Position numbers and translations under genes: made by a program. From an uncultured archaeon (GTDB lineage Archaea > Thermoproteota > Bathyarchaeia > Bathyarchaeales > Bathycorpusculaceae), in NCBI GenBank assembly GCA_963782915.1, contig CAWALK010000012.1, forward strand, positions 96,001 through 160,000: a DNA stretch of 64,000 nt, read 5' to 3'. Below, in pieces: positions 2,408 to 46,402 of this stretch (positions are counted from its first letter, which is position 1; each line of letters begins with the position of its first letter). A model generated the notes under the pieces. It was given only the letters and a program-made list of their open reading frames with translations, made no database searches and was not told where the DNA came from.

Positions 2408-3508
2408 TTACTTCTTCTCTTTCTTTTGCATCTCAGCCCAAGCCTTAGGAATATAGCCACAGGCTGGGTCAGCCTCAGTAATGTCGCCAGTGTAGGCGTA
2501 CGCTCGGTTTCTGCATCCACCACAAACATCAAGATATTCGCAGACTCCGCATTTGCCTTTGACGACTTTGCGGTCTTGGAATCTGTTGTAGTATTTTGAG
2601 GCTTTGACTTCTTCCCATGCTTGGGTTAAGGGTTTGCTGCGGATGTTGCCTAGCATCATGGGTTCGTTGGGTTGGAGGTCAGTGTAGAAGCAGGGGATTA
2701 AGTCGCCGTTTTCGGTTACGCTTAGGTAGCCGCCGAATGCGAAGTAAGTGCATTTGCCGTGGAACTCTTTCTCGTACCATTCGTTGAATTCTTTTTCTGG
2801 AAGGCGCTGTTTGACGACGCGTGCGAAGAATGGGCAGTGTACGTGGACTTCGAATTTGCCTCTGTATTTCTCGGTGATGTCCCAGATGTGGTTGAGTACC
2901 TCTTCGTACTGTTCGGGGGTGGGTTCTAGTTCCATGGTGGTTTTGGCTCTGCCGCTGGGCACAAGCGCGTTGTACCAGACAAAGTTAGCGTGGTACTTTT
3001 CTGCGAGTTCGGCGACGTGGTCGAGGTGTTTTAGGTTAACTGTTGTTATGGCGCAGGCTAAGCCGTTTAGGATTTTGCCTTCGGCGAGTTTTTCGATGGC
3101 TGCAAGGGCTTTTTTGTAGCTGCCTTTGCCGCGGAGTTCATCGTTGATTTCTTCAGGGCCATCAATGCTTACTGATGACCAAATTTGGTTCTTGACTAAG
3201 TTATCGTAGATTTTGCCGTCAACAAATGCGCCGTTGGTTAAAATGCACACGTTGAGGCCTTTACTTTTTGCGTAGGTGGCGATTTCAAAGATGTCTGGTC
3301 GTGTGAGGGGTTCGCCGCCTTTTAAGCCGAACCATTTTACACCGAATTTGTGCACTTCATCAACGAGGTGGAAGGCTTCTTGCGTTGTCATTTCTCTTGG
3401 GGCATGCTGTCCTGTGGCGTCTACGTTGCAGTATTTGCATCGTGCGTTACAGGCGCCGGTGGCACGCCAAGAAGTCATAAGAAGTGGACCTTTATGTTCA
3501 TCAGTCAA
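2408..3508 (-). CDS. Radical SAM/SPASM-domain protein (PqqE/AhbC-D-like superfamily)
   Basis: CNARCKYC radical SAM motif and GGEP. SPASM cysteines: C..GDLIPC and GKCGVCEYLDVCGGCR..C. Confidence 0.9.
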   Translation of the reverse strand: MTDEHKGPLLMTSWRATGACNARCKYCNVDATGQHAPREMTTQEAFHLVDEVHKFGVKWFGLKGGEPLTRPDIFEIATYAKSKGLNVCILTNGAFVDGKIYDNLVKNQIWSSVSIDGPEEINDELRGKGSYKKALAAIEKLAEGKILNGLACAITTVNLKHLDHVAELAEKYHANFVWYNALVPSGRAKTTMELEPTPEQYEEVLNHIWDITEKYRGKFEVHVHCPFFARVVKQRLPEKEFNEWYEKEFHGKCTYFAFGGYLSVTENGDLIPCFYTDLQPNEPMMLGNIRSKPLTQAWEEVKASKYYNRFQDRKVVKGKCGVCEYLDVCGGCRNRAYAYTGDITEADPACGYIPKAWAEMQKKEKK

Positions 3509-3812
3509 ACTAGAATCCTCTCTCGGTTCCGTTTTTCATTGTTGACTTTAAGGGTTGTTTTCGCCCTAAAATAGTTTACTTGTTGCTTGGCTGTTTTGGT
3601 TTTCTCTTCTTTTTCGCAAGTTTCGCCATCAAGAATTAGAAAAATCTGTGTTTTGTTAGGTTTTGAGTAAACTTTATAGTACAATATGGGTCTGTGTATG
3701 ACTTGGGGCAAGGAATCGACGTATCTCTTGATCAGAATCCAAACTTCGCCCAAAACCTCTGGGGGTAATTATAATTAACAAAAAAATCCTGGTAACCATT
3801 GCTTTAGTTTTC

Positions 3813-6299
3813 TTGATGTTTTCTTCAGTATTTGCTTCTCTTTCTGTCCATGTATTTGCTCAAGCCGCTGGCAGCGAGAATGAGTATGAGTGGACGCAGC
3901 TTCAAGGCGACTCTTCCACTACTCGCTTCTCCGCGGGGCCTGCTCCAGATACTTCTAACGTACTGTGGAAAGCGAACATAACAGGCATACAGCCCTACCT
4001 ATCGGCGTTTAACGGCAAAATATACGTCGCCAGCACCACCACCGTCTATGCGCTGAACCAAAACGGCAATATTGTTTGGCAAACAAACTTCCCAAACGCC
4101 ACAACCTGGCCAATCGCATACAAAATCGACAATTCTCATATGATTATAGAAAATTATTGCTTTGACCCCGAGACTGGTGCTCTGCTCTGGTTAAGCCCCG
4201 TTTTTAACGCTTACACGGGAATCTTCAACTCTAACGTTTACAGCCCAGAAGAGCAAATGTTCTACGTTAAAGTTGATAGCTACATTGAAGCTTGGAGCTT
4301 CGCCAATCCCAGCCAGCCACCTACAATGATCTGGCGCACCTACATCAGAGGCGGCGGAATAACAGGCATCGGAACAACCTATGGCGACGGAAAAGTCTTC
4401 ACAGGCTCATTCGAGAACATCCAATATGCATTAGACGCCAAAACCGGCAAAACCCTCTGGACAACCAACACCAAAGGCCCCATGGTTTTCACAGGCGCCT
4501 ACGCAGACGGCCTCTACTTCAAAGGCGGAAGCGACGACAACACCATGTACGCTTTTAACGCATCGACAGGCAAAATCGTCTGGACCTACACCCCCGAAAC
4601 AAACGGTTACTTCGTCACGGGCTGTGCAGTCGCCTACGGCATGGTTTACGAGATGAACAAAGACGGTTACCTCTACGCTTTCAACATGTATACCGGCGAC
4701 TTGATGTGGAAATACAAGGGTCCCAACGACTCGTTAATGTGGCCTGGAATGCCCACGGTTGCAGACGGCAAAATCTACTTAACTACAGGCGAATCCGCAC
4801 AATACAACGGACCGGCCGGCACCTCAGAATTTTCTTGCCTAAACGCTTACACCGGACAACAAATTTGGAAACTATCAGACATGGAAGCCCTGCCTCCACG
4901 GGAATCAGCTATCGTGGCTTATGGCACCCTATACATTATCCCCGGCGACGTCACAACCTCAGTCGACACCATTTCAGGCAACGAATACGCCACTGACCAG
5001 CAAGTCTTGGCGATAAAGGATATATCCCCTGATGGAACTCCGACCAAAGTCTCCACTAACTGGAAACAGTGGCGAAATGACCCAACCCACTCCTCAACCG
5101 CATCTGTTGGGCCCGCAAGTTTGAACGTTGCATGGAAGTTTGAAACGGGTGGCTCTGTTATTTCTTCGCCGAGTGTCTCTGATGACATAGTCTATGTGGG
5201 TTCAACGGATGGCTACATCTATGCGTTAGGTGCTTGGGGCGGTAACTTGATTTGGAAATTTAAGACCGATGCACCGGTCGAATCCTCCGTTGCAGTTGCT
5301 AATGGTTATGTGTATACGGGCGGCGATGACGGTTACGTGTACTGCCTCAACCCCTGCACAGGCGCGCAGGTGTGGAAGACGTTTGTTAACGGTAACCAGG
5401 AGTTCACTTTCGGGAACTTGGTTCTGAAATCTTCCCCAGCTGTTGTGGATAAAACAGTTTACATCGGCTCCCTCGATGGCTACCTTTACGCTTTAGATGC
5501 GGATACTGGGAACATTAAATGGAAAACCCCAGCACAAGGACCCATCGAATCATCCCCCGCCGTAGCAGATGGCGCAGTATATTTCACGGCAGAAGAACCT
5601 ACCACTGGTGTTGTCTATAAGCTCGATGCAGCAACTGGCCAAGTGCTCTGGAACTTCAGCATCGCCTATCGCCCATCATTCACGGGCGGAAACCAAATGC
5701 TCGGTTCACCCAGCGTTGCGGAGGGTAAAGTGTTTGCGTCCTCAAACTGGGGCGACTACTACGCTCTTGACACCCAAACAGGCGCAGAAATATGGCACTT
5801 CTACGACACCACCGCCACCGAATTCATCGTATCCTCCCCAATTTGGGTTGACGGCAAAGTCTACTTAATCGACAAATTCGACTTAGCATGCGTAGACGGC
5901 ACCACAGGCAGCGCCATATGGAGCAAATACACAGGCGACGAACTCTACGTTTCACCCTCCTACGCAGACGGCAAAGTCTACATGGTTACCAGTCAACGCC
6001 ACATATTCGTACTCGACGTAGCCAACGGCGGAGTCATAATCGCCAACGCCACCACCGACTCAAGCAGCTGGTCTTCACCCACCATCGCTAACGACAGATT
6101 ATACATCGGCTGCAACGACTGGAACGTCTACTGCTTCGCAGAAACAATCACTCCCCAAACCACCACCACAACAGCAACTCCCGCCCCAACCAGCGGCTCC
6201 GAAGCACCATCAATAATCTACCTTATCGTAATGATAATCGCTATAGTCGCAGTCGCAGCAGTATTGACTTACAGAATAAAAACAGCTAAATTGCAATAG
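3813..6299 (+). CDS. Secreted double PQQ-like beta-propeller protein with Thr/Pro linker and C-terminal TM anchor (true start probably ~3771-3774)
   Basis: Two propeller modules opened by EWTQLQGD and NWKQWRND. Repeated SSPxVxxGxVY/LYALDAxTG motifs. TTTTTATPAP linker and hydrophobic tail. Confidence 0.88.
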   Translation: MMFSSVFASLSVHVFAQAAGSENEYEWTQLQGDSSTTRFSAGPAPDTSNVLWKANITGIQPYLSAFNGKIYVASTTTVYALNQNGNIVWQTNFPNATTWPIAYKIDNSHMIIENYCFDPETGALLWLSPVFNAYTGIFNSNVYSPEEQMFYVKVDSYIEAWSFANPSQPPTMIWRTYIRGGGITGIGTTYGDGKVFTGSFENIQYALDAKTGKTLWTTNTKGPMVFTGAYADGLYFKGGSDDNTMYAFNASTGKIVWTYTPETNGYFVTGCAVAYGMVYEMNKDGYLYAFNMYTGDLMWKYKGPNDSLMWPGMPTVADGKIYLTTGESAQYNGPAGTSEFSCLNAYTGQQIWKLSDMEALPPRESAIVAYGTLYIIPGDVTTSVDTISGNEYATDQQVLAIKDISPDGTPTKVSTNWKQWRNDPTHSSTASVGPASLNVAWKFETGGSVISSPSVSDDIVYVGSTDGYIYALGAWGGNLIWKFKTDAPVESSVAVANGYVYTGGDDGYVYCLNPCTGAQVWKTFVNGNQEFTFGNLVLKSSPAVVDKTVYIGSLDGYLYALDADTGNIKWKTPAQGPIESSPAVADGAVYFTAEEPTTGVVYKLDAATGQVLWNFSIAYRPSFTGGNQMLGSPSVAEGKVFASSNWGDYYALDTQTGAEIWHFYDTTATEFIVSSPIWVDGKVYLIDKFDLACVDGTTGSAIWSKYTGDELYVSPSYADGKVYMVTSQRHIFVLDVANGGVIIANATTDSSSWSSPTIANDRLYIGCNDWNVYCFAETITPQTTTTTATPAPTSGSEAPSIIYLIVMIIAIVAVAAVLTYRIKTAKLQ

Positions 6300-6300: not shown

Positions 6301-7776
6301 TTAAGCTTGGGCTTCCTGCTCTTTAGTGGAAGTACTATAGCCGCCGGCGCTCTTCTTTGCGCCCCTCACTTTACTTAATCTTCTAAAAGTCCACATGGCT
6401 GCTTTATTATTCCAAACCAGATGGTTCAGCGCTGCCCGTGCCATGATTTGGCTGTAGAAATCTCCTTTGAGTTTTTTGCGCAGGAAATAGCCTGTGGTGA
6501 AGTAGTGGTCGAAGAATTCCTTCTTGACCTCTTCGAGTCTCTCGAGTGGGAGGAGTGTGTTTGTGAAGATTTGGGTTTCTTCGCGGTACTGGTTCCAAGT
6601 CGAGGGTACTTCTAAGCCGAGTTCTTTGATGAAGCTGGCTAATTCGGTGCCTGGGTATGGGACTGCTTCGCACATGTAGACGTAGTCGGGTTTGGTTTTG
6701 TGGAGGAAATCGATGGTTTGCTGCAGCATCTCGGGGGTTTCAGTGGGGTAACCGATGACCAGTGAGACGGCGACGGATAAGCCTGCTTCTTTAGCCCATT
6801 TGATGGCTTGCGCGTTTAATTCGACGGTGGTGCCTTTGCGCATGAGTTTGAGCATTTCTGGGCTGCCTGATTCGACGCCGAAATGGATAAGCTGGCAGTT
6901 AGTAGCCTTCAACTTCGCCAAAAGCTCTTTTGAGACGCGGTCGACTCTGGTTCTGCAATCCCATGGAAGGTCTACTTTGCGTTTCTGCATCTCATCACAG
7001 ATAGCAAAAGCACGCTTCAAATCAAAAGTAAACGTATCATCATAGAAAGCAAACGCGCCCGCATGGTACTCATCCCTTAACCATTCCAGTTCATCCACAA
7101 CTTTACTTGGGCTCCGTCCGCGGAAGCCGTGACCGCACATTTTCCTTGCTAAACAGAACGTGCATGCGGATGGGCAGCCTCGGCTGGTGATGATGGGCAT
7201 GTAGTTTACGCCGAAGAGTTTGTACATGTTTGTGTCGAAGTGGTGATGGGCTGGGTGGGGTAGTGAGTCGATGTCTGTCATGAAGGGGCGGTCGGGTGTT
7301 TGGATGATTTGGTTGTTGTTTTTGTATGTGATGCCTTGGACTTGGCTGAGGTTTTTGAGGTTACCCTCCGAAACCATTTTTGCCAATTCGAGCATGGTTT
7401 GTTCGCCTTCACCGCGAACTACGATGTCAAGGTTGCCGCTTTCATTGATTGCTTCTTGGTCAAGCACGGTTACGTGGGGTCCACCCATCAGCGTCAAAGC
7501 TTTGGGCACTGCGGCTTTGGCTGTTTTCAAAACATCAAGTGCTGGCAGATAAGTAACAGTAGCCGAGGTAACGCCGATAATGTCGGGGTTTAAACTTCGG
7601 AATTTCTCTTCCAACGTTTTCTGGTCTGGCTTGGTGATTTGGCAATCAACCACATCAACCTTGTAACCTTCCTGTTCGAGAACTGCTGCCAAGTAGCCGA
7701 TGCCAAGCGGCAGAAAGATAGATTGTGAAGCTTCTGGCGGATATGGTGGATTTACAAGTGCTACGTGGGCTTTCAC
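6301..7776 (-). CDS. B12-binding-domain radical SAM protein (class B methylase / Grs-Gmm-like superfamily), paralog 1
   Basis: N-terminal LVNPP..PLGIGYLAA, GGPH and RGEGE; SRGCPSACTFC; FGVESG. Likely GTG start at 7776. Confidence 0.92.
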   Translation of the reverse strand: MKAHVALVNPPYPPEASQSIFLPLGIGYLAAVLEQEGYKVDVVDCQITKPDQKTLEEKFRSLNPDIIGVTSATVTYLPALDVLKTAKAAVPKALTLMGGPHVTVLDQEAINESGNLDIVVRGEGEQTMLELAKMVSEGNLKNLSQVQGITYKNNNQIIQTPDRPFMTDIDSLPHPAHHHFDTNMYKLFGVNYMPIITSRGCPSACTFCLARKMCGHGFRGRSPSKVVDELEWLRDEYHAGAFAFYDDTFTFDLKRAFAICDEMQKRKVDLPWDCRTRVDRVSKELLAKLKATNCQLIHFGVESGSPEMLKLMRKGTTVELNAQAIKWAKEAGLSVAVSLVIGYPTETPEMLQQTIDFLHKTKPDYVYMCEAVPYPGTELASFIKELGLEVPSTWNQYREETQIFTNTLLPLERLEEVKKEFFDHYFTTGYFLRKKLKGDFYSQIMARAALNHLVWNNKAAMWTFRRLSKVRGAKKSAGGYSTSTKEQEAQA

Positions 7777-7935
7777 GTTGGTACCCCAAGATTTACTGAA
7801 AAACACGGTCTGCGAAGCTATTATGTTTTACGTAAATTGCCATCGGTATGCGCTTTGTGGTTGCAAAAACGGAAGGTTTTTTATTTTAACCACCCAACTA
7901 GCGATCTATCTATCATTGTCTTGGAGTAAAGTGGC

Positions 7936-9483
7936 TTGTCAGCGGACTTAGCAATCATAAATGCAAACATAAAAACCATGAACCCCAACCAACCCACCGC
8001 ACAAGCAGTAGCCATAACCAAAAACAGAATCACCAAAGTCGGCTCCAACCAAGACATAGAACCCCTAATCGGCGAGTCCACCACGGTCATGGACCTAGAA
8101 GGTAAAACTGTTCTGCCTGGATTAATTGATACCCACATCCACGTCGCCGATTATGGGCGATGTCTCATGTGGCTCGACCTTTCGAGCGCAAAATCCATCG
8201 CAGAACTCCAACAACTCATCAAAGAAAAAGCAAAAACCCTGTTTTCTGGTCAATGGATTATTGGGCAAGGCTGGAACGAAACCCGCTTCAAAGAACAGCG
8301 AGTGCCCTCAGCCGAGGATTTGGATGAGGCTTCACCCAACAACCCAGTTATCCTCTACCGCGAAGCAGCCATGATTTGCGCAGCCAACACAAAAGCAATC
8401 GAGCTAGCAAAAGTAACTGAACAAACCTCTGCACCCCAAGGCGGCGCAATAGACAAAACCGCAAGCGGCAAACCCATGGGCATTTTCCGCGACACCGCCG
8501 CCAATCTCATTTGGCAAGCCGTGCCCGAACCCACCGAGGACGAGTTGCTGGCGGCAACGGCGCAGGCATGCCAAAAAATCTTCCAAGCAGGCATAACCAG
8601 CCTCAACTGGCTCGTTATCTCGGAGGGCGAACTCTCGATAATCCAGCGGCTGCACGAGCAGGACAGGTTGCTTTTCAGAGTTAACGTGGTGGTTCCAGAG
8701 GCGTTGCTGGAGAAAGTCGTTGCTTTAAAGTCAAAAGACCGTGACGTGCTGCGGGTTGGGGGCGCCTTCATCGTCGTCGACGGCTACTTAGACTCCAAAG
8801 AAGCCGCATTGCAGAAACCCTACAGTGACGACCCAAGCAACTGCGGCAAAATGCTTCTCACACAAGAGGCATTGGCTAATTCGGTTCAGAGAGCAATTGC
8901 CTTTGGTGTTCAACCAGTCATCCACGCTATGGGCGACAAAGCCATCGATACAACACTAACAGTGATCGAGCAAACCAAAAAAACGGACATTCGCTTCCGA
9001 ATCGAACAGGCTGCAGTCCTAGATAAATTATTAATCAAGCGCCTCAAAAAACAAGATGTCGTCGTTTCCATCCAGCCTAAAGTTATTTCAACGGAATTCA
9101 CGGTTTGGTCAGCTAATCAGCGCCTTGGCAACCGCGCACGACTGCTACATCCACTCAAAACCCTCCTTGATGAAGGCGTTAGGGTTGCGGCTGGTTCAGA
9201 TTGTCCTATGGAGCCGTTGAGTGCACTGTTGGGTGTTCAGGAAATGGTGACAAGGCAAAGCTATCCCGAGCAACGACTCAGTGTTGACGAAGCAATTCGT
9301 CTGTACACTTTGGATGCCGCTTACTGTTCGGGTGAAGAGAACATTAAGGGTTCCATTGAAGAGGGCAAACTAGCCGACCTAACAATCCTTTCTAAGGACC
9401 TTGCATCGGTTGAGCCTGGAAAAATCAGTCAAGTAGCCGTAGATTTTGTTGTATTAAACGGCAAAGTGCTAGTCGTTACCTAG
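7936..9483 (+). CDS. Amidohydrolase 3 (YtcJ-like) metal-dependent hydrolase
   Basis: PGLIDTHIH, HAMGD, AGSDCP and GSIEEGKLADL motifs. Confidence 0.9.
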   Translation: MSADLAIINANIKTMNPNQPTAQAVAITKNRITKVGSNQDIEPLIGESTTVMDLEGKTVLPGLIDTHIHVADYGRCLMWLDLSSAKSIAELQQLIKEKAKTLFSGQWIIGQGWNETRFKEQRVPSAEDLDEASPNNPVILYREAAMICAANTKAIELAKVTEQTSAPQGGAIDKTASGKPMGIFRDTAANLIWQAVPEPTEDELLAATAQACQKIFQAGITSLNWLVISEGELSIIQRLHEQDRLLFRVNVVVPEALLEKVVALKSKDRDVLRVGGAFIVVDGYLDSKEAALQKPYSDDPSNCGKMLLTQEALANSVQRAIAFGVQPVIHAMGDKAIDTTLTVIEQTKKTDIRFRIEQAAVLDKLLIKRLKKQDVVVSIQPKVISTEFTVWSANQRLGNRARLLHPLKTLLDEGVRVAAGSDCPMEPLSALLGVQEMVTRQSYPEQRLSVDEAIRLYTLDAAYCSGEENIKGSIEEGKLADLTILSKDLASVEPGKISQVAVDFVVLNGKVLVVT

Positions 9484-10702: not shown

Positions 10703-12160
10703 TTACTTTTTTAGAAGCATACCAAGCATCCGTACCGTTCTACGCGGATTACGAATAGCCCTACCAACCTTATGCCTCGTCAACGTACGATTAATCGCGT
10801 TAGCCCTCATACATAACTCGCTTATTTCTTGGGCGGAGAACTCAGGCGTCTCAACCAACGGCTCCGTAGCAGCCAACGCATAATCACAAAAACCCTCACG
10901 TATGTATCCGCCTGCTTTTGCCTGTTCATAGAATGCGGTGCCATAAAGCGGCATAGCGATGCTAAACACAAAGCTTTCAGCCCCTAAACTTTTGAGTTTG
11001 TATGCGTAACGGATGGTTTCTTCGATGTCAGCTTTAGTTTCGCCGATTAAACCCATGACAAAGAAGCAACCGACTTTAATGCCGACTTTCTTGGCGGCTA
11101 CAATTGCTTCTTCAACCTTTTTCAAATCCAGATTCTTTTTAGCTACATCACTGACAATCCGCTGAACGCCCGATTCTGGGGCAACACGGATTTTTTTGCA
11201 ACCCGACCGCTTCATTTTCCATAACAGTTCCTCATCCAACGTGTCTGCTCTGACTCCGTTAGGAGTAAACCAATCAAAATGCAGGTCCCTCTCAACGATT
11301 AAGTCACAGATTTGCGCCATCCGCTGCTTATCCCATGTCATGTTATCGTCTGCGAAATCGATTTGTTTTATGCCATAGGTTTTGATGACGTGCTCAACTT
11401 CGTCAACCACATTCTTGGGGCTTCTGGGACGCCACTGTTTCCCCCAGACAATGCAATGTGTGCAGAAAACGCAGTTGAAGGGGCAGCCTCTGCTTGTGAT
11501 GACGATGGTGTAGGGTTTGGTTATTTCGCCACGGAGCGGGTTCTGTTTGACTGCTTCTGCATAAACCGTCATTGGTAACAGGTGCCGAGCCGGAAGAGGC
11601 AAGGTATCTAAGTCCTGAATAACTGCACGTTTGCCCGTGAGGATTACTTTGCCGTTTTCCCAGAAACCTAACCCGTCGATACCAAGGAAACTGGTTTTTT
11701 TCTGCTCCAAGACCTCAACTAATTCGGCAATGGTGTTTTCAGGTTCGCCGACAACCACAAAATCCGCCTCAGAATCTTCAAGGCAACTCTCTGGTCTTGA
11801 GGATGGATGCAGCCCAAACAGCACCACAACAATGTCTTTGTTAACCTTTTTTGCTATGGATACCACTTCAAACGCTGTTTTAGACCATCCTGAAAACGGA
11901 ATCTCCACCACAACAACTTCAGGTTTCCAATCCGTGATTCGCTGTGCAATCACGTCTGCGCTTAACCCCACTCGATACTTGGTTGCATCGAGCTCGAGGA
12001 GGTTTTCCCAGCCTTCTGTCGGAGAATCAATTATGGTAACTTGATGCGCTTTTTTCTCTAGAACCGCTGCGACTGATGCCATTGCGATTGGCGGAAAAAC
12101 GTTGGGTTTTCCCCATGCTTTAGGTTGAATTCGTGGTGGATTGATGAGGCAAACACGCAT
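10703..12160 (-). CDS. B12-binding radical SAM protein, paralog 2
   Basis: LINPP, GLHP, GEPE, SRGCPFNCVFC, APESG. Confidence 0.92.
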   Translation of the reverse strand: MRVCLINPPRIQPKAWGKPNVFPPIAMASVAAVLEKKAHQVTIIDSPTEGWENLLELDATKYRVGLSADVIAQRITDWKPEVVVVEIPFSGWSKTAFEVVSIAKKVNKDIVVVLFGLHPSSRPESCLEDSEADFVVVGEPENTIAELVEVLEQKKTSFLGIDGLGFWENGKVILTGKRAVIQDLDTLPLPARHLLPMTVYAEAVKQNPLRGEITKPYTIVITSRGCPFNCVFCTHCIVWGKQWRPRSPKNVVDEVEHVIKTYGIKQIDFADDNMTWDKQRMAQICDLIVERDLHFDWFTPNGVRADTLDEELLWKMKRSGCKKIRVAPESGVQRIVSDVAKKNLDLKKVEEAIVAAKKVGIKVGCFFVMGLIGETKADIEETIRYAYKLKSLGAESFVFSIAMPLYGTAFYEQAKAGGYIREGFCDYALAATEPLVETPEFSAQEISELCMRANAINRTLTRHKVGRAIRNPRRTVRMLGMLLKK

Positions 12161-12211
12161 GCAACGCACTTCTCTGCACAACTACGCTGATTCTTTGATT
12201 AATACTTTGCA

Positions 12212-15330: not shown

Positions 15331-15478
15331 TTCTGCTTCACGCTTTGAGGTTTTGTCTGTTTGAAGGGATTTGAGGCTTAAAACGTTTCGCATTTTCCCA
15401 TATCTGCCCCATTCAGGGAATTGTTTGATGGTTAGTCCTCGCATTGGACGGCTGAGTGTTTTTCTCAAAACTATTTAA

Positions 15479-32603: not shown

Positions 32604-32660
32604 ATACCTACCAACTTGCCTGTATATAATATAGGCTTTATCGTCTTTGGGGGATGCAAA

Positions 32661-37318: not shown

Positions 37319-37363
37319 CAGCTAACTTCCACTTCAAAGGGTTATATTGTTTCCGTCACGATG

Positions 37364-38530
37364 TTAAATAAGCTCTTCGTATATCTCCGCAAGCCTTTCA
37401 ACGTTTACATCCCAGCTAAACTGTGTTTCGACCATTGCTCTGAGTTCAGCTTTGCGTGGGCCAAAATCTATGTCTGCAAAATCAAAGATTGCCTGCGCGA
37501 GCAGTTCGGGTTGATTGGGCGGCACCAGTTTGCCGTATTGGTCGAGTAGGATTTCTTTTATGCCTCCAACATCGGTGGCTACTACTGGTAATCCGCATGC
37601 CATGGCTTCCATAGCAACCAACGGCAAACCCTCACCAGATTTAGAGGGCAACACAAACAAGTCCGCTGCATTATAGTATGATGGCAAATCTGCGTCACTA
37701 ACAAAGCCTGCGAGCTTAAAATTAGCGGCGATTCCCAACTGGGCAACCTGCAACCTCACATTTTCCATGTCTGGACCCTTGCCGACTACTAAGAACATGA
37801 TTTTGCGGTTCTTTTTGATGGCGATGTTTGCACAATCAAGCAATGTGTCGACGCCGTTCTTGTACACCAGCCGCCTAACAGTAAAAACAACGATGGCGTC
37901 GTGTGGGATGCCAAGTTTTTTGCGCATCTCTTCACGTTTTCCCGGAATCGTTTTAAAGCGTGCAATGTCAACGCCGTTGTAGACGACTTTTATTTTGCTC
38001 GGTTTAGCGCCTAATCTTAGGACGTAGTCTTTGGTGGCGCTGCTTATTGCTATGATCTTGTCTGCGGTTCTTAAGTTCTGTTTTCCCACAGACAAGTCGT
38101 TTACCAATTCAACTTGGTCGAAAATGTTGTTGTAATCGATGAAAGTGTTGTGTTGGGTGAGGACAAACGGTTTTTCATAGAATTTTGCCAGTTTTCCGGC
38201 TGCAAGAGAGGTTAGGTATGGGTGTCCGTGGGCGTGGATGATCTGGTTATTTTTGATTGATTTGGTAAAGGTTGGGAAACTGCCCACGGTCGGAATCGAG
38301 TATGGAATGCCTAATCGGAAGCCTGTGTTGAGGGATTCATAGCATTCAACAGGTACTCCATCAACCTTGTAGTGGCTGGGTGTGCCGATTCTGTTAGTTA
38401 CAACCATGGGCTGGTAGTTTTTGTGTTGCAGTCGCTTGCTCTGCTCGTTAACGACCTTTTCTATTCCGCCGACATGTGGCAGAAAAGTGTGGGTGACAAT
38501 GCAGAGGCGAGTTTTAGCCATGGAAGCCAA
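37364..38530 (-). CDS. GT4 glycosyltransferase
   Basis: PHVGG, YNGVD, RLVYKNG, EGLPLVAMEAMACGLPVV. Confidence 0.92.
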   Translation of the reverse strand: MASMAKTRLCIVTHTFLPHVGGIEKVVNEQSKRLQHKNYQPMVVTNRIGTPSHYKVDGVPVECYESLNTGFRLGIPYSIPTVGSFPTFTKSIKNNQIIHAHGHPYLTSLAAGKLAKFYEKPFVLTQHNTFIDYNNIFDQVELVNDLSVGKQNLRTADKIIAISSATKDYVLRLGAKPSKIKVVYNGVDIARFKTIPGKREEMRKKLGIPHDAIVVFTVRRLVYKNGVDTLLDCANIAIKKNRKIMFLVVGKGPDMENVRLQVAQLGIAANFKLAGFVSDADLPSYYNAADLFVLPSKSGEGLPLVAMEAMACGLPVVATDVGGIKEILLDQYGKLVPPNQPELLAQAIFDFADIDFGPRKAELRAMVETQFSWDVNVERLAEIYEELI

Positions 38531-38581: not shown

Positions 38582-39064
38582 TTAGCAGGTTGTGCCTGTG
38601 GCTTTGAGGGCTTTGGTGTACATGTTGGATGAGGCACCTGCAACTAACGCGCCGATGGCGTCGTTGGTTAATGGTGGTAGCTCTTTTAGGATGCCGGGTT
38701 TGGCTTGGTCGAAGCGTACGAATTCGAACATGCCTTTGGAGCCGCCGATGTAAGTGGCGATGGCTATGCCGATGAGTTCATCCGCAACTAAGCCGGGTCT
38801 GCCCATAAAGCGTTCTATTGTTAAGCCTGGGATTCGGCCGTTTTGTGCTTCTTCTTGGGCGTGGAAGGCTGCGACGATGAGGGTTGAGACGTTTACGTCT
38901 GTTAGGATGTCGAGGAATTCTTCTTTGAGAAGTTCAGTGGCTTTTTGGGGGGTTTCGATGCCAGGGTGCGGTACGTACATTTCAAGGGCGCTGTCAATAA
39001 GACTTTGGAGTGAGATGCCTCTGGCTTCGAGGTAGGTTAATAGTGGCGGTATCTGGTCTTTCAT
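38582..39064 (-). CDS. cobZ: Alpha-ribazole phosphatase CobZ (PgpA-like archaeal type)
   Basis: DVNV..L, LVADELIG.AIA.YIGG.KG.FEF.RFD..KPGIL..LPP..DAIG. Confidence 0.8.
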   Translation of the reverse strand: MKDQIPPLLTYLEARGISLQSLIDSALEMYVPHPGIETPQKATELLKEEFLDILTDVNVSTLIVAAFHAQEEAQNGRIPGLTIERFMGRPGLVADELIGIAIATYIGGSKGMFEFVRFDQAKPGILKELPPLTNDAIGALVAGASSNMYTKALKATGTTC

Positions 39065-39381: not shown

Positions 39382-39733
39382 TTTGCTAAGCCTTTTCGAG
39401 AACTTTGACGTAATTGCTACGATAAAAGGATTTTGTGCATTATTGGAGGAATTTCCCTGTTGAGCCATTATTATTTTGCGGTTCATTTTTTGGACCCTAA
39501 GGAACTCGCCGTTTAGTTGCGTTAGCTGTGTGCTATTCCTAGGAATCGAAATGCTTATATGAAAACGTTGGATAAACCAACCAGCAGTCCGTGTGGTAAT
39601 TTGCTAAACATAAAGAAAAACTCGATTGTATCAGCCAAAGATTTAGCTTTAGTTGAGTGTTCTGGCTGTTTGGCAAGTAAAACCTTATTTTCCTGTTTAA
39701 CTGTTTCTAACCAACCAGGAGGAAAAAAACTAG

Positions 39734-40404
39734 ATGAAAGTTGTAGCTTCATGGAGCGGCGGCAAAGACAGCTGCTACGCATACTACCTTGCCAAAGCGC
39801 AAGGCCACCAAATCCTATCATTATTAACTATGATGATGAGCGAGGACAAATCAAACTTCCACATGATACCCTCAGGCATCCTCGACGCACAGGCAGAAGC
39901 CATGGGCGTGTCCACTTAATTAAAAAGACCACTTCAGCAGCCACCTATGAGGCTGACTTCAAAGCGGTACTATCCGAATGCAAAGCCAAAGGCGCAGAAG
40001 GATTAGTCACAGGCGACATCTACGAAGTCGCAGGCCACGAAGAAGGTTGGCTTGAGCGTGTATGCAAAGAAATCGGTTTAGTAACCGTCAAACCGCTTTG
40101 GATGGGAGACACCAAACAAATCTATCTTGATTACCTCAAAACCGGTTTCAAAGCAACCGTCGTACGCACCAACAAAACCCTCAGCTTAGACTGGCTCGGA
40201 CGCGTATTAGACCGCAAATTCTACGACGACATCTTGGCACTCGGCGACGTTGACCCATGTGGCGAAGGCGGCGAATACCACACCGTAATCACCGACGGAC
40301 CCAACTTCAAACAAAAAATCGAGTTCCTAGAAACCGAAAAGAAAAGATTAGAGAATGGCTTTGGATACTTAGATATCAAGAAATGGAAAGTAACTCCAAA
40401 ATAA
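39734..40404 (+). CDS. Diphthine-ammonia ligase family (PP-loop, DUF71) ATP-binding protein; frameshift near 39910
   Basis: SWSGGKDS in ORF 39734..39919. GDI, PLW and DPCGEGGEYHT in ORF 39559..40404. Confidence 0.85.
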
Positions 40405-40415: not shown

Positions 40416-41505
40416 ATGGATGTCTTAATCGCCAACAACGAACTCAAAGCAAAAGCCTTCCTTGATGAGATTGAAGGCAAAAAACCCCTATTCATCGCAA
40501 CAATCGCCACAACAGAAACCGGCAAAATCCCCGGTTTATCTGCAGCTGGCGCAAACCCAGACTTCACTGACTTCACTCCTCCGGCAGATGCCGAGTTGTT
40601 GCTGCTTGGAAAATGCAGATCCATCCAAGGCGTCCCCATTACTCCCGACGGAATTCCGACACCGGCCCTGATTACGACTTCTGCGTTGCATTTAGCCGAC
40701 ATTCCAGTGCTGATTGTTAACGGTGGAGTTAAGGTTAAACCTCAAATTCCCTACATTGACGTTAACGGCAGCCCAGGACGCGACATCAGAACAGGCGATT
40801 CAGTGGATAATGTCGAAGAAGTCATTGAACGTGCTAAAGTTGTCGGTGAACAGTTGGCTAAAGTGTCGGATTACCTGGTTATCGGCGAAAGCATCCCCGG
40901 CGGAACGACGACAGCGTTGGGTGTTTTGACGGCGTTGGGTGTCGATGCAATGGGCAAAGTCAGCAGCACCTTACCATTAAATCCGCATAATTTGAAGGCA
41001 GAAGTAGTTACGGCAGGTTTGAAAGCCGCTGGCGAGAAATTCGGTAGCTTCAAAGGTGACCCAATCAAGGCAGTTTCCGCAGTCGGTGACCCTATGATGG
41101 CTGCGGTTGCCGGTTTAGTTATCGGCGGAAGCAGGCAGGGGCCTGTTTTGATGGCTGGCGGAACCCAAATGACCGCAGTCCTCGCAGTAATCAATGCATT
41201 AGAGCCTAAAGCGCTCTGTAACGTTGCAGTCGGCACCACACGATGGGTAGCAAAAGACAAGACCTCCGACATCTGCGGCATCACCAAGCAATTCTGCGAA
41301 GTCCCCGTCTTAGCTGCTGACCTTAGATTTTGGTCCTTCCCAATATCCGGGCTTACAAATCTACGAAACAGGGCTCGTAAAAGAAGGCGTCGGCGCAGGC
41401 GGAGCCTCAATCGCAGCCATGGCAAAGACCGGCGGAGCAGTTACCAAGCAAATTCTTCTTAAGGAGATAGAGCGTAACTATGCCTCACTGATGAACCTAA
41501 AGTGA
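40416..41505 (+). CDS. cobT: Archaeal CobT (nicotinate-nucleotide:lower-base phosphoribosyltransferase); frameshift near 41327
   Basis: TETGKIPGLSAAG, TPPADAE, PTPALIT, GESIPGGTTTA, GGTQM. The alternate frame gives YETGLVKEGVGAGG to TGA at 41505. Confidence 0.88.
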
Positions 41506-41512: not shown

Positions 41513-42292
41513 TTGGTCGTTAAACAGCTAAAAAACCTCTTATCTTTCTTAACCGTTTTTCCAGTCCAAATGGATAAGGACTTGCTTACTGACTGCGCCA
41601 AAAACATGTGGGCTTTCCCATTAATCGGCGCATTCTTAGGCTTGCTCGCTGGCTTGTTTGGTTGGGTTGCAACCATATTTTTGCCCAGCTTAGTCGTAGG
41701 CGCATTGGCTCTGGCGTTGCTGCTTTGGATGACTGGGCTGCATCACACTGATGGTTTGCTGGATTTCGGCGACGGCGTCATGGTACATGGCACCCCCGAA
41801 AAGAAAATCGAGGTTATGCATGACCAACTCACAGGTGCAGGCGCAATCGGCTTAGCACTCATGACCTACATCGTCACTGCGTTTGCGTTTGCTTCCCTCG
41901 GCGGAAACCAGAATATCTTTGGTTTTAGGGTGCCCTTGATTCTTCCTGCGTTAATCGTTATCGAGTTATGCGCCAAGTTGGGTATGGTTGTGGCTGCCCG
42001 TGCAGGCCGATCAGTGCATCAGGGCATGAACTCATCTTTTCTCCAAGCAATGCATGGAAGCGGCGGAAACTGGCGTCTCGCGTTAGCGTTGGTGATTTCG
42101 TTTGCAGTTGCGTTACCTTTGCTGGGTTTAGGCGGCATCTACGTCGTCTTAGCCGCTGTCGTTACTGGGTTAGTGATGGTTGGGGTTGCACATAGGAACT
42201 TTAACGGCGTCACAGGCGACGTGTTCGGCTCAACCAACGAGTTAACACGCATGGTTTGCGCTGTGGTGTTATTGGCGGTGGTTGCATGGTAA
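41513..42292 (+). CDS. cobS: Adenosylcobinamide-GDP ribazoletransferase CobS, copy 2 (canonical motifs)
   Basis: SFLT, FPLIG, GLHHTDGLLDFGDG, MHD..TGAG, GVTGDVFG..NE. Confidence 0.9.
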   Translation: MVVKQLKNLLSFLTVFPVQMDKDLLTDCAKNMWAFPLIGAFLGLLAGLFGWVATIFLPSLVVGALALALLLWMTGLHHTDGLLDFGDGVMVHGTPEKKIEVMHDQLTGAGAIGLALMTYIVTAFAFASLGGNQNIFGFRVPLILPALIVIELCAKLGMVVAARAGRSVHQGMNSSFLQAMHGSGGNWRLALALVISFAVALPLLGLGGIYVVLAAVVTGLVMVGVAHRNFNGVTGDVFGSTNELTRMVCAVVLLAVVAW

Positions 42293-42907
42293 CTGCGTTG
42301 GTTATGGCTGGTGGCAAAGGCACCCGCATGAAGCTCGCTGAAGAGAAGCCGCTTATCAAAGTCTGTGGCAAACCCGTGATTGAGTATGTGCTTGCTGCAT
42401 TGAAGAGACGCTAAAAAAATTGATCAACATAATCGTGGCTACATCCACTACTACGCCAAAAACTACGGCGTTGATGAAGCACTCGGCGTCCAAGTTATCC
42501 AAACTCCAGGTAAAGACTATGTTTCCGACATGGGCTACACGGTCCAAACGCTCAAGTTCGGCGTTTTCTTAGCAATCGCGGCTGATTTGCCATTGGTGAA
42601 GCCTGAAATGATTGATGCAGTGGTGGAACGTTATGAGCAATGCGGCAAACCTGCGCTAACGGTTGCGGTGCCGCTTGAAGTTAAAGCCAAGTTGGGCATG
42701 AGCATCGAATACAGCTTCAAAACCGACGACAACTGTGACGTGGTTCCAGTCGGCATAAACGTCATAGACGGCAGCAAACGTTACGGCGACGAATGGCTCG
42801 ACCAAGACATCTACATCCTAAACCACGAAGAACTCGCCGTTAACATCAACACAGTGCAGGAACTACAGCTGGCAGAACGCATGTTGGCTGAGAAACTTAA
42901 GAAATAG
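42286..42907 (+). CDS. cobY: CobY guanylyltransferase, copy 2; several indels in 42400-42490
   Basis: ATG at 42286 gives MVTALVMAGGKGTRMK..EKP. The downstream frame has ADLP, GINV and NINT. Confidence 0.8.
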
Positions 42908-43900: not shown

Positions 43901-43950
43901 TTATAATCCCTTGCAATTTAGGTTGCCAAATCAATCATTAAGGTTTTCTC

Positions 43951-44733
43951 TTACAACAAGCTCACAATTGTTGGGATTGCGATGAAGAAGTGCATGTAAA
44001 CCGCTATCGCCAAAATCGCAATTGTAATTGCCAGCAGGGCGTAGTCGCCTTTGTGCAGTTTTAGCAAATAGAGGTTGGTGCGTTTTTTGCTTGCACCCCA
44101 TGCACGGGACTCCATGGCTTCGGCTAATTCGAGGCTTCTGCGGATGGCGCTGACGATCAATGGGATGAGTACGGGTATGTAGTTGCGGATGCGTTTCATT
44201 AAGCCGCCTTTCTCGAGTTCGAGTCCTCGGGCTTTTTGGGCATCCATGATGGTTTGGGCTTCCTCAGCCAAAACTGGCACAAAGCGGACGGCTGTGGTAA
44301 AGGCGAACGCGAATTCATATGGCACCCGTGACTGCTCAAGTGCTAAGCCTAAGTGGTCGGGTGAGGTGGTTAGGAAGAAGACTGAGAAGGACTCGACCAG
44401 GACGACGAATCGCAGAGTCATCGCTGCAGCAGATTCCACAGCAGCTGGAGTAAGGGTGTAACCTTGGGTGAAGAAGGTTGTGCCAATGTTTATGAAAAAG
44501 ATAAATGCTGCCAAAAAGGCTGCTCCACGCAGCGAACGCAACCACTGCTTCTGAACCCTTGCCAGAAACACAAACGGCAACTGCATCAAAAACAGGGCAA
44601 GCAACGGGATGATTTGGGTGAAGATGATGGCTACTATGAAGATGGCGATGACATAGACGAATTTTATTCGTGGGTCCAAGTTGTGGATTGGGCTGGATAC
44701 TTTGCGGAATTTTAAGCCGTCAAAAACGCTCAT
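43951..44733 (-). CDS. ecfT: ECF transporter transmembrane component T
   Basis: LDPRIK, RFVP, AQKARG, AMESR. Confidence 0.92.
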   Translation of the reverse strand: MSVFDGLKFRKVSSPIHNLDPRIKFVYVIAIFIVAIIFTQIIPLLALFLMQLPFVFLARVQKQWLRSLRGAAFLAAFIFFINIGTTFFTQGYTLTPAAVESAAAMTLRFVVLVESFSVFFLTTSPDHLGLALEQSRVPYEFAFAFTTAVRFVPVLAEEAQTIMDAQKARGLELEKGGLMKRIRNYIPVLIPLIVSAIRRSLELAEAMESRAWGASKKRTNLYLLKLHKGDYALLAITIAILAIAVYMHFFIAIPTIVSLL

Positions 44734-45554
44734 CTGCCCAATCGCTCCTTAGTTTTAAGCAGTAGTGCTTTAGCTTCGTAAATGTCAATGATGTCTTTTG
44801 GCAAACCCAACGATTCCAGTTTGGTGAATACCTGCGCTATCTGAGGCAGCACAATCGAGGACAACTCTAGCATGGCTGGGTCGGTTAGGATTTCTTTTCC
44901 TTCGCCGTCCGCAACGATTTTGCCCTCTTTCATTAGGATGACACGGGGATTGCATTCCGCTACAAACTCCACGTCGTGGGTGACTGCAACTACGGTTTTC
45001 TTCTGTGTCTGCAGCTGCATGATGAATTGGCGAAGTATCTCTTTCTGCTCATGGTCCTGCCCGATGGTGGGTTCATCCAAAATCAACGTTTTCGGATCCC
45101 AAGCCAGCACTGATGCTAAGGCTACACGTTTGCGTTCTCCGCCGCTGAGTAGGAACGGCGAGGTTTTGCGGTACTGAGCAATCGAGAGTAATTCAAGCGC
45201 CCATGTAACCTGCTGTTCGATTACTTTAGGTTCGAACCCGAAGTTTTTGAGTGCAAAAGAGATTTCTTCTTCAACGGTTTCGCTGAACAGTTGATGGTCT
45301 GGATTTTGGAAGACGAAGCCGACGTTTCTTGCTAATGCTGCAACGCTGGATTTGGTGGTTGGTACCCCATCTATCTTAACTGTGCCCATCGAGGGTTTCA
45401 GTAAGCCGTTGAAGTGTTTGACAAAGGTGGATTTGCCTGCGCCGTTCTGCCCCATGATGGCGACGAATTCGCCGTCTTTAATGGTTAATGAGACGCCTTT
45501 TAGGGCTTCAACTTTGCTGGCGTAGGAGTAATGGACGTTTTCGGCTTCAATCAT
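44730..45554 (-). CDS. ecfA2: ECF transporter ATPase
   Basis: GQNGAGKST, FQNPDHQ, LSGGE, LDEPT.GQD. Confidence 0.92.
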   Translation of the reverse strand: MIEAENVHYSYASKVEALKGVSLTIKDGEFVAIMGQNGAGKSTFVKHFNGLLKPSMGTVKIDGVPTTKSSVAALARNVGFVFQNPDHQLFSETVEEEISFALKNFGFEPKVIEQQVTWALELLSIAQYRKTSPFLLSGGERKRVALASVLAWDPKTLILDEPTIGQDHEQKEILRQFIMQLQTQKKTVVAVTHDVEFVAECNPRVILMKEGKIVADGEGKEILTDPAMLELSSIVLPQIAQVFTKLESLGLPKDIIDIYEAKALLLKTKERLGR

Positions 45555-46402
45555 TTCGGCGAGAGTGCCTCCAGTAGTTGTTCTGCCAGCTCTTCGGATG
45601 AGAGTGGGGTTTTGTCGCCTAAGTTGAAGCCTTCTTTTTTAGCATCTGATAGAGCAAAGTTGCCTTGGGGATGCCGACGCCGATTAAACGGGTTTCCTCA
45701 TTGTTCAGTATCTGGCGTGGGTCGCCTTCTAAGCCGAACTGTGCCCTGATCCATAACGATTAGGTGGTCAGTGTATTTGGCGGTTAAGTCCAATCGGTGC
45801 TCGACGAGGATAACGGTGATGCCCTGTTCTTTGTTTAATCGATAGATGACTTCGAAGATTTTCTGTGCACTAAGGGGGTCCAGAAAAGATGTTGGTTCAT
45901 CGAGCACAATGATGTCGGGTTCCATCGCCAACACAGATGCAATCGCCACCCGCTGCTGCTGTCCACCGCTGATTTCGTGGGGGGAGCGTTCGCGGATGTC
46001 GTAGATGCCTGTTTGGTTAAGTGCCCAATCGACTTTTTTGCGCATTTCCGTTCTGGCTACGCCGACGTTTTCTAAGCCGAAAGCAACATCTTTCTCGATG
46101 GATAGCGCAAAAAGCTGGTTTTCGGGGTTCTGGAACACTAAGCCAACATGCTTCGCCATCTCATACGTGTGATGCTCAAGCGCGTTAATGCCAGCCACCG
46201 TGACTTCGCCTTTAACTTCGCCCTGATAAAAATGCGGAACCAAACCGTTAAAGCAACGGCACAAAGTTGTTTTGCCACAGCCACTTGGACCCGTAATCAA
46301 AACAAACTCGCCCTTCTCTATCTTTATGTTCACATCATGGATTGATGGTTTTGATGCGCCAGGATAGGTGTAGGTGAGGTTTTTGATTTCTATTATAGCC
46401 AA
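45551..46402 (-). CDS. ecfA1: ECF transporter ATPase; indels near 45730 and 45640
   Basis: GPSGCGKTT, FQNPENQ, SGGQQQR, LDEPTS.LD. The tail (EGDPRQIL..LIGVGIP) continues in shifted frames to a stop overlapping the next ATG. Confidence 0.9.

Follow-up and report, generated by a model that had tools for sequence, protein, structure and literature searches.

We found that a 64,000-nucleotide stretch of Bathyarchaeial DNA (hereafter the window; positions 96001-160000 of contig C12 of genome G000) holds a gene cluster built around a second tetraether-synthase homologue (Tes2). We propose, with moderate confidence, that it is a conserved accessory lipid-tailoring supercluster of Bathy-6-type Bathyarchaeia, which also carries the last synthesis steps of the cofactor for its cobalamin-binding (class-B) radical S-adenosylmethionine (SAM) enzymes, here called B12-rSAMs. 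The co-location of these genes is conserved beyond the genus and looks functional when gene neighbourhoods are compared. The genome is a 3.28-Mb assembly in 25 contigs, 93.5% complete, with a contamination estimate of 2.35%. Scans of the window's open reading frames (ORFs), 46 against Pfam and 41 against NCBIfam, bore out the inventory of radical SAM, B12-rSAM, methyltransferase, glycosyltransferase (GT), epimerase, cob and ECF transporter genes that an earlier note, made from the DNA alone, had listed. The family-level identities of the genes, their paralogy, their conservation and their co-distribution are observations, and we describe them before turning to function. Positions are those of the window unless a contig is named, and are followed by the strand.

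An SDR epimerase/dehydratase gene (32616-33587, +), a prenyltransferase gene resembling those of digeranylgeranylglyceryl phosphate (DGGGP) synthases (UbiA2; 33584-34468, +) and Tes2 (34465-35937, +) form an operon whose consecutive genes overlap by 4 nt. Tes2 scores 460.0 bits on the Tes model NF045702, barely above the cut-off of 450, while the canonical Tes of the genome, on contig C22, scores 670.7 bits and is 38-40% identical to Tes2; on these scores the window gene is a second, diverged copy. It aligns at full length with the solved glycerol dialkyl glycerol tetraether (GDGT) synthase GDGT-MAS (7TOL; 368.6 bits, query residues 3-484), and in this alignment retains the N-terminal Cys ribbon, the CxxxCxxC radical SAM motif and the auxiliary-cluster Cys motifs. 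UbiA2 meets PF01040 (121.8 bits), and its best solved relative is the DGGGP synthase 6M31 (115 bits), but it falls below all DGGGP-synthase cut-offs (171.9 against 269 for NF009521, 164.1 against 296 for NF009522 and 119.4 against 353 for NF009523). A DGGGP-synthase-like paralogue on contig C11 scores 243.1 bits where UbiA2 scores 172, and the genome has a single gene for geranylgeranylglyceryl phosphate (GGGP) synthase. The DGGGP synthase overlapping a Tes-like gene that the note had described therefore stands as regards the 4-nt overlap and the Tes assignment, whereas the synthase itself stays below its cut-offs.

The distribution of the cluster was studied in 301 Bathyarchaeia genomes (the class sample) and 101 genomes of the order (the order sample), in which we label the genome's own family f1, the sister family f7 and the own genus g1. 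Matches of Tes2 type, at 43-92% identity where canonical Tes reaches 36-42%, were found in 38 of the 301 class genomes, own genome counted, belonging to g1, g18, g21, g22, g23, g24, g28 and g31 of f1 and to g16 of f7. A low-scoring second CobS (51-105 bits on PF02654) is present in exactly these 38 genomes, at most 8 kb from Tes2 in 37 of them; the 52 other CobS-bearing class genomes have a single copy (50), two canonical-scoring copies (one) or a fragment (one). All 38 also carry the radical SAM/SPASM type that we call SPASM2 (at least 52% identity); in 30 genomes it shares a contig with Tes2 at a distance of no more than 25 kb, and in 23 the distance is no more than 8 kb. Separate searches were made for B12rS_2, B12rS_3 and B12rS_4, three of the window's four B12-rSAM types, the fourth being B12rS_1. 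Members of the B12rS_3 family (at least 50% identity) were found in 37 class genomes, all of Tes2-bearing genera. In the order sample B12rS_4 and B12rS_2 were each found in 27 of the 101 genomes, only in g1, g18, g21, g22 and g23 (f1) and g16 (f7), with none in the ten other families. One genome of g1 (G182, 90% complete) is without the Tes2, SPASM2, B12rS_3 and B12rS_4 types and without either CobS, and keeps B12rS_2. Within f1, presence and absence of the Tes2 cluster go with presence and absence of cobamide loop assembly. Production of butanetriol and pentanetriol dialkyl glycerol tetraethers is a trait attributed to Bathyarchaeia at large. The note had suggested the locus as a home for their enzymes; the occurrence of the cluster in only 38 of the 301 sampled Bathyarchaeia argues against its underlying such a class-wide trait.

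Gene order was compared over 52-80 kb around Tes2 in five genomes of g1 and over 20-40 kb, limited by contig ends, in ten genomes of seven other genera. UbiA2 and Tes2 are adjacent in all fifteen (5/5 and 10/10), as is the diverged CobS (CobS-like) adjoining their module (5/5 and 10/10), and the epimerase lies alongside in 5/5 and 9/10. A diverged CobY (CobY-like) stands beside CobS-like in 4/5 genomes of the genus, the fifth having a canonical-type CobY there, and in 9/10 of the others. The block of a DUF1616 gene, a GT2 and a GT4 is kept in 5/5 of the genus and, elsewhere, complete in 8/10 and partial in 2/10. SPASM2 lies in the fetched stretch in 4/5 and 7/10, and the set of GT4/GT2/GT2, the hypothetical gene hyp187 and CobD in 4/5 and 6/10. 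Canonical cobS lies in the fetched stretch in 4/5 genomes of g1, in 8/8 genomes of f1 outside g1 (within 40 kb) and in 0/2 of g16, and the canonical block from cobZ to cobY is kept in 4/5 genus genomes. Genome G040 of g16, a single contig, has the same content in a changed order: CbiB2 (454.6 kb), B12rS_4, B12rS_2, two B12rS_3-type genes, SPASM2, CobD, CobS-like and Tes2 (481.2 kb) follow one another within 27 kb, with canonical cobS at 431 kb. The genes between Tes2 and CobS-like in g16 encode a pyridine-nucleotide disulfide oxidoreductase or hypothetical proteins and are not conserved. Synteny across Bathyarchaeia, which the note had named as a check, is thus conserved in all five genus genomes and in all ten genomes of the seven other genera, including the rearranged g16.

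SPASM2 (27794-29236, -; PF04055 and PF13186) is an AhbD-like radical SAM/SPASM protein whose gene is overlapped by that of a DUF362 protein (26851-27804, -). On the AhbD model TIGR04545 it scores 301.6 bits over residues 123-471, below the cut-off of 500, which is what a protein other than AhbD should show. Upstream of this core lies a 122-residue N-terminal extension with a Cys-x2-Cys...Cys-x2-Cys Zn-ribbon, which can be aligned across 30 homologues with identities as low as 29%; residues 1-125 gave only sub-threshold Zn-ribbon matches in Pfam. In the available text of the paper on the GMGT synthase Gms, the hallmarks of this enzyme are homology to AhbD (36% identity to Methanosarcina barkeri AhbD) and a 100-residue N-terminal extension forming a lipid pocket (PMC11214058). 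SPASM2 shows both the AhbD-like radical SAM/SPASM core and an extension of about 100 residues, and on this published architecture we consider it a Gms-type candidate. For Bathyarchaeota the same text gives 188 homologues of Gms and 307 of Gmm, the latter mostly multi-copy in a non-canonical "Gmm2" clade (PMC11214058). A profile search with an alignment of eight SPASM2 sequences returned 80 loci, all from Bathyarchaeia and at 68-96% identity. Close homologues include those of "Candidatus Bathycorpusculum" spp. (79-85%) and of "Bathy6-F90_cMAG_MillC" (87%), and the cluster names of ten distant representatives are only Promethearchaeota and Methanofastidiosum. Eighty-four further class genomes, including f1 genera without Tes2, have as their only full-length SPASM2 homologue one at 35-47% identity. 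Because the Tes2-less f1 genera, which are closer relatives than g16, hold only such homologues, SPASM2 is a distinct type that travels with Tes2. The whole of contig C13 (12.7 kb) holds a second hyp187/GT2/.../DUF362/SPASM2 block at 66-83% protein identity, which could be a real duplication or come from a second strain in the bin.

Five GT genes lie on either side of the SPASM2-to-Tes2 region. Three are in tandem: a GT2 resembling AglJ and dolichol-phosphate (Dol-P)-hexose transferases (23151-23960, +), a second GT2 (23965-24954, +) and a GT4 (24897-26147, +). They diverge from the CobD2/hyp187 pair (21519-23187, -), in which hyp187, encoding a membrane protein with three transmembrane segments, overlaps CobD2. 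The other two, a Dol-P-hexose-transferase-like GT2 (36581-37318, -) and a GT4 (37364-38530, -), form with a DUF1616 membrane protein a block (36115-38530, -) convergent on Tes2.

The four B12-rSAMs, B12rS_1 (6301-7806, -), B12rS_2 (10703-12181, -), B12rS_3 (13945-15468, -) and the divergent B12rS_4 (18904-20334, +), all match PF02310 and PF04055 and have the CxxxCxxC motif. They are concentrated on this contig: C12 carries 7 of the 11 full-length B12-rSAMs of the genome (binomial p = 1.9e-4), and five of the 11 lie within 22 kb, an arrangement that occurred 0 times in 200,000 random placements. B12rS_1, whose best NCBIfam match is BchE (217 bits against a cut-off of 481), belongs to a five-gene paralogue family of the contig and is 38-44% identical to the genes at C12:94378, 53516, 55020 and 109945. 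B12rS_2 is directly downstream of CbiB2 on the same strand, with a 30-nt gap. Next to B12rS_3, which has a basic hydrophobic C-terminal tail, is a class I SAM-dependent methyltransferase of UbiE/COQ5-like type (15479-16336, +; Methyltransf_11, 75.8 bits) that reaches no NCBIfam cut-off; the pair is kept in both g16 genomes, where the methyltransferase homologues beside the B12rS_3-type gene are 51-58% identical. Several B12-rSAM C-termini are basic, partly hydrophobic and possibly amphipathic tails, which would be compatible with peripheral membrane binding. Between B12rS_1 and CbiB2 lies an Amidohydro_3 metallohydrolase assigned by Pfam (7936-9483, +), and this adjacency is kept in a genome of g23 (G200), where the Amidohydro_3 protein is 45% identical. 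B12rS_4 lies beside CobD in G200 and in a genome of g21 (G197), while the gene next to it in the window, an aldo/keto reductase with a Cys-rich C-terminal Fe-S region assigned by Pfam (20345-21433, +), keeps this position within g1 only.

Three more B12-rSAM paralogues lie upstream of the window (C12:51682-56420 and 93003-95832). Two of them have MtrH, a small corrinoid protein and a fragment of DUF1616 as neighbours; the third, which immediately precedes the window, adjoins a HutW/HemN-like radical SAM gene. The stretch between these paralogues holds a split CbiZ and a SAM synthetase of bacterial type. The NCBIfam scan of the genome's B12-rSAMs returned no Grs, Gmm, Cgm/Pgm or Ted model among its matches, and a protein-atlas search with B12rS_3 returned only generically named B12-rSAM clusters. 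PF07143, which we take to be the accession of the CrtC/AttH family and which marks the context of Ted and Hgs, had no match in the own genome or in any of the 301 class genomes at E <= 1e-10, a result for which the choice of family or threshold may be wrong. A role in making the lower ligand (Bza) was considered and rejected: scores on the BzaD model TIGR04385 are 92-139 bits against a cut-off of 450, and no ThiC-family gene accompanies them, PF01964 (ThiC/BzaF) having no match in the 93.5%-complete genome.

All six loop functions of cobamide synthesis, CbiB, CobD, CobY, CobS, CobT and CobZ, are encoded in the window. CbiB, CobD, CobS and CobY are each present twice in the genome, and CobT and CobZ once; the window's cbiB, cobD, CobS-like and CobY-like genes are, on their scores and identities, a more diverged second set. 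CbiB2, an adenosylcobinamide-phosphate synthase paralogue (12212-13270, -), scores 275.3 bits on NF002281 (cut-off 273) and 234.8 on TIGR00380 (cut-off 165.9), while the other CbiB, on contig C1, scores 332 bits, is 39% identical to CbiB2 and is paired there with the other CobD. Two CbiB copies were found in 4/5 relatives, the lower-scoring one within about 27 kb of Tes2 in three of those four. CobD2 resembles threonine-phosphate decarboxylases (21519-22640, -) and is slightly below the cut-off of TIGR01140 (282.2 against 290.55 bits). CobY-like (31134-31754, -), a diverged homologue of the adenosylcobinamide-phosphate guanylyltransferase, scores 124.6 bits on TIGR00454 (cut-off 174.7) and 96.1 on NF045495 (cut-off 250), and aligns end to end with Methanocaldococcus jannaschii CobY (3RSB, 65 bits). 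CobS-like (31766-32714, -) is transcribed divergently from the operon of epimerase, UbiA2 and Tes2, the ORF calls overlapping. Its frameshifted copy scores 71 bits on TIGR00317 (cut-off 110), and on PF02654 the intact copies of relatives reach 82-105 bits where canonical ones reach 128-156. The two CobS groups are 34% identical to each other and have 41 near-invariant columns in common (at least 85% conserved in both groups), including the motifs FLT..P, TGL[H/Q]H.DGL.D.G[D/N], AKL.MV and GD..GA.NE..R; CobS-like differs by nine group-specific switches, an insertion and an N-terminal extension.

The canonical loop genes lie further on, beyond the DUF1616/GT2/GT4 block: cobZ (38582-39064, -; TIGR03161, 139.9 bits, below the cut-off of 152.5), cobT (40416-41462, +; TIGR00303, 365.7 bits, above 240), cobS (41513-42292, +; TIGR00317, 152 bits, above 110) and cobY (42292-42907, +). 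In this assembly canonical cobY needs two frame changes and CobS-like one, and the frames are intact in relatives. CbiZ (C12:70272-71304), CobD (C1:64497-65631) and CbiL (C23:53149-53929) are split as well. Indel errors of the assembly are suspected because many genes of this genome are split while their relatives are intact, which suggests that the frame changes are such errors rather than marks of pseudogenes.

The corrin ring itself has no genes in the window, as the note had observed; they are on contig C23, which encodes HemA, HemB, HemC, HemD, HemL, CobA, a small chelatase, CbiC, CbiD, CbiE and CbiT together with CbiL, CbiF, CbiG, CbiH, CbiA and CbiMQ. Since C23 encodes this Hem/CobA/Cbi pathway, the ring is made de novo, and the salvaged cobinamide of the note is not supported. 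This agrees with the available account of Bathy-6 metagenome-assembled genomes (MAGs), which describes a full B12 pathway at three loci (PMC11697101). The lineage should therefore be seen as one that makes, rather than only salvages, its cobamide. Two further genes lie in or beside the canonical block. Between cobZ and cobT lies a Dph6-like gene (39559-40404, +) that encodes a PP-loop ATP pyrophosphatase domain behind a 120-residue N-terminal part of no known family; it is found there in 4/5 genus genomes and in 7/8 f1 genomes outside g1, and is missing there from G288, G008 and both genomes of g16. Its product may take part in loop assembly as a partner so far overlooked. A TIM-barrel gene of the AP_endonuc_2 family (PF01261; 43018-43900, -), split into two ORFs, separates cobY from the ECF genes, a position kept in 4/5 genus genomes; it is a candidate for a CbiR-like cobamide-remodelling enzyme, its features matching the way CbiR was defined. 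The available part of the CbiR paper reports only one archaeal taxon. The ECF module (43951-46402, -) comprises a T component of the CbiQ family (PF02361) and two ATPases (PF00005); NCBIfam ECF models stay below their cut-offs, and no S component is adjacent.

In the scheme we favour, UbiA2 and Tes2 would draw on the common GGGP pool to make a specialised ether lipid that spans the membrane, the Gms-type SPASM2, with its DUF362 partner, would cross-link the lipid chains, the B12-rSAMs would methylate or otherwise radical-modify the lipid, and the GTs would attach sugar head groups. The co-located loop-assembly genes would finish the cobamide that the B12-rSAMs need, on a corrin ring made de novo from another contig. 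Every substrate and product in this scheme, as well as the supply of cofactor by the cob paralogues, we infer from gene families and neighbourhoods. The coupling of membrane-lipid modification to corrinoids that the note had put forward survives in part: it is favoured by the conserved co-location and co-distribution, while its salvage component is not supported and one of its radical SAM/SPASM genes, SPASM1, probably lies outside the module.

A number of observations weigh against this scheme, many of them concerning the B12-rSAMs. None of the 11 in the genome, the four of the window and seven others, reaches any curated NCBIfam cut-off; the best scores, about 200-260 bits, are generic ones for BchE, HpnJ, ApyD or the P-methyltransferase family. 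A B12-rSAM of one of the four types lies in the fetched stretch of only 2/5 genomes of g1 and 4/10 of other genera, and only 18 of the 38 Tes2 genomes (g1, g23 and g16) have a B12rS_3-family gene at most 35 kb from Tes2; g18, g21, g22, g28 and g31 have no gene of this family near it. It may then be that only the Tes2, UbiA2, Gms-type and GT part is lipid-related, the B12-rSAMs, methyltransferase, amidohydrolase and aldo/keto reductase acting on substrates other than lipids, for instance compounds derived from lignin, a cofactor or a tetrapyrrole, and the genes being co-located through a common need for cobamide. We regard this as unlikely, though it deserves to be taken seriously. It fits the below-cut-off best families, the absence of B12-rSAMs near Tes2 in the g18, g21, g22, g28 and g31 genomes examined, the place of B12rS_2 in the CbiB2 operon and of B12rS_4 against CobD, and the three further paralogues of C12, which stand beside MtrH and a corrinoid protein or a HutW/HemN-like radical SAM gene and not beside lipid genes. 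In the available text of the Bathy-6 paper the authors propose lignin metabolism for these B12-rSAMs, count 7-20 such genes in each MAG and report BzaCDE-like matches (PMC11697101). However, three B12-rSAM types have the narrow range of Tes2, with none in the 50 other CobS-bearing class genomes or in the ten other families of the order, and rearrangement has not removed them from the cluster in g1, g23 and g16. The low BzaD scores and the lack of a detected ThiC/BzaF-family gene also speak against it, as would, if the window genes belong there, the lipid-methylase clade Gmm2 in which multi-copy B12-rSAMs of Bathyarchaeota are reported (PMC11214058).

Other points bear on the co-distribution, which amounts to few independent events (about two lineages plus losses such as that in G182, the relatives not being independent) and which also goes along with larger genome size and with the ability to make cobamide at all: CobS was not found in 16 of 17 genomes of f1 genera without Tes2 (12 of 13 genera, g36 having one copy). 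If there were no functional coupling at all, the blocks would be adjacent by descent and their distribution common through gene loss in streamlined relatives. The small size of cluster-less genomes (about 1.0-1.6 Mb in most such f1 genera, against 1.5-3.3 Mb with the cluster) suits this explanation, and so do the joint absence in G182, for which one deletion or a missing contig could account, and the separation of blocks within the genus, 27 kb away in 2/5 genomes. We nevertheless hold it to be very improbable, as the same content recurs in a new order in g16, in another family and at 39-65% protein identity, as overlaps and short gaps produce operons that mix gene classes (CbiB2 with B12rS_2; CobD2 with hyp187, diverging from GT genes), and as the random placements never reproduced the density of B12-rSAMs. 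The last difficulty concerns CobS-like, for which a lipid role fits at least as well as a cofactor role because it stays beside Tes2 even where canonical cobS is at least 47 kb off (G040 and G229) or on another contig (g16). The diverged CobS-like and CobY-like, CobD2 and perhaps CbiB2 could have been recruited from cobamide synthesis to a lipid pathway, in which CobD2 would yield an amino-alcohol phosphate such as aminopropanol phosphate, CobY-like would turn it into a GDP derivative and CobS-like, a polytopic membrane enzyme, would transfer it to a hydroxyl of the Tes2 lipid or of a sugar as a phosphodiester. That CobS-like occurs only with Tes2, at most 8 kb away in 37 of the 38 genomes, and is divergent from the epimerase, UbiA2 and Tes2 genes with overlapping ORF calls is in keeping with such a recruitment, as are its location in g16, its catalytic-type motifs kept alongside nine switches, an insertion and an extension, and the existence of a complete canonical set of CobD, CbiB, CobS, CobY, CobT and CobZ. 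We still judge it improbable. The end-to-end CobY match of CobY-like and the 41 common CobS columns leave room for unchanged corrinoid chemistry, canonical loop genes lie in the same cluster in f1, and g16 has one high-scoring CobD, in the cluster, which must serve cobamide synthesis there. Multiple cob copies beside genes for B12-dependent enzymes are also found elsewhere, for example in Dehalococcoides. The CobS of Vibrio cholerae is reported to remodel cobamides.

The window holds further genes. SPASM1 (2408-3508, -; PF04055 and PF13186), an AhbD/NirJ/PqqE-like radical SAM/SPASM protein, scores 216 bits on TIGR04545 (cut-off 500) with a match that starts at residue 11, so that it is without an extension, and its gene stands among three PQQ-like beta-propeller genes (88-6299) whose products have terminal membrane anchors. 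The available text on Bathy-6 describes a PqqE-like gene paired with PQQ-domain proteins (PMC11697101). Because SPASM1 is without the extension, lies among propeller genes and resembles a pairing separately described for Bathy-6, we did not count it in the lipid cluster; it probably belongs to another module. Two tandem genes for fused double Lrp/AsnC proteins that share 70% identity (16337-18650, -) were considered as siroheme decarboxylase AhbA/AhbB (NirDL), but they score 49.2/43.8 and 37.3/29.7 bits against cut-offs of 140/125. Lrp/AsnC regulator models outscore the Ahb models, yet also stay below their cut-offs, and these proteins are likely regulators. With the curated cut-offs missed, an Ahb/NirDL heme reading of the double AsnC and SPASM genes was set aside. 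Another predicted winged-helix regulator, hyp148 (13491-13937, +), has weak IclR/TrmB helix-turn-helix matches below cut-offs and C-terminal membrane helices. It has six paralogues in the genome (e.g. C12:87886-88341 and C18:111590-112201); the family has a winged-helix-like N-terminal region and two to three C-terminal membrane helices, and several members adjoin radical SAM genes. Its members may be membrane-tethered regulators. An MNT/HepT toxin-antitoxin pair (26203-26843, +) between the GT block and the DUF362/SPASM2 genes was seen in G014 alone when five genomes of the genus were examined. A 1.3-kb gap holds two small paralogous ORFs rich in Cys and His, of 97 and 80 residues (30323-30616 and 30726-30968, -), which have the motif LPVIHCRCG.EILV.PDA.AMGKAI in common; the pair has no family match in our scans and no tblastn match in the fetched regions of relatives. 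Towards the end of the window (55773-60443), two GH130 mannoside-phosphorylase genes flank a gene for a 758-residue GT4/GH127-like fusion.

Few laboratory cultures exist of the abundant Bathyarchaeia, whose membrane lipids have been deduced only indirectly. In this cluster we have a defined and testable set of candidates: Tes2, the DGGGP-synthase-like UbiA2, the Gms-type protein, four B12-rSAMs, five GTs and the pair of CobS-like and CobY-like. Should the lipid role be true, the set would point to new tetraether modifications and to sediment and soil biomarkers that could be assigned to one soil, peat and gut lineage. It would also reveal a role for second Tes homologues, which, in the available part of the Tes study, occur in 22 of 322 methanogen genomes and in one case, MA_1114, give only trace macrocyclic archaeol (PMC8941075). 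CobS-like raises the question whether a CobS-family enzyme can act outside cobamide synthesis; if it were recruited for a head group, the resulting chemistry would have no known counterpart among the head groups of archaeal lipids and the CobS family would gain a new function, with the Gms-type protein and the B12-rSAMs tailoring the same lipid. The open-access literature yielded no description of a cluster with a Tes paralogue, of a Bathyarchaeial Tes with cobalamin or of Bathycorpusculum lipids. Already in print, in the texts available, are the abundance of B12-rSAMs and the B12 loci of Bathy-6 (PMC11697101) and the multi-copy Gmm2 of Bathyarchaeota (PMC11214058).

Among known systems, the gms-grs-gmm cluster of Thermococcus guaymasensis is similar in that, as described in the available text, an AhbD-like radical SAM/SPASM protein with an extension of about 100 residues is clustered with B12-binding radical SAM enzymes whose substrates are tetraether lipids (PMC11214058). 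Compared with that description, the window has no recognisable Grs and adds a second Tes, a second DGGGP-synthase-like UbiA, five GTs and loop-assembly genes. A second parallel comes from a recent preprint (10.1101/2025.10.20.683597), whose available part reports the tetraether desaturase Ted, a B12-rSAM of Ca. Bathyarchaeota B1_G15 accompanied by Hgs, and the GDGT methylases Cgm and Pgm. In that case a Bathyarchaeial B12-rSAM modifies GDGT tails and its gene lies beside other lipid genes, and the enzymes are predicted to be peripheral membrane proteins; however, the reported Ted homologues have at least 500 residues, whereas the window B12-rSAMs have 476-507, and no AttH/CrtC-family gene (PF07143) was found. 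The Bathy-6 MAGs are of the same lineage, include the relative that is 87% identical for SPASM2 and have PQQ-domain proteins, whereas the Tes2/UbiA2/CobS-like module and a lipid role are not described in the available text of that paper (PMC11697101). The likeness to Tes/GDGT-MAS (PMC8941075, as far as available; 7TOL) rests on a score above the Tes cut-off and a full-length alignment. Unlike that enzyme, Tes2 is found in two lineages only, always in an operon with a UbiA paralogue and facing a CobS paralogue. In contrast to standard archaeal loop assembly, finally, four of the functions are duplicated here, and it is the diverged copies, not the canonical ones, that are tied to Tes2.

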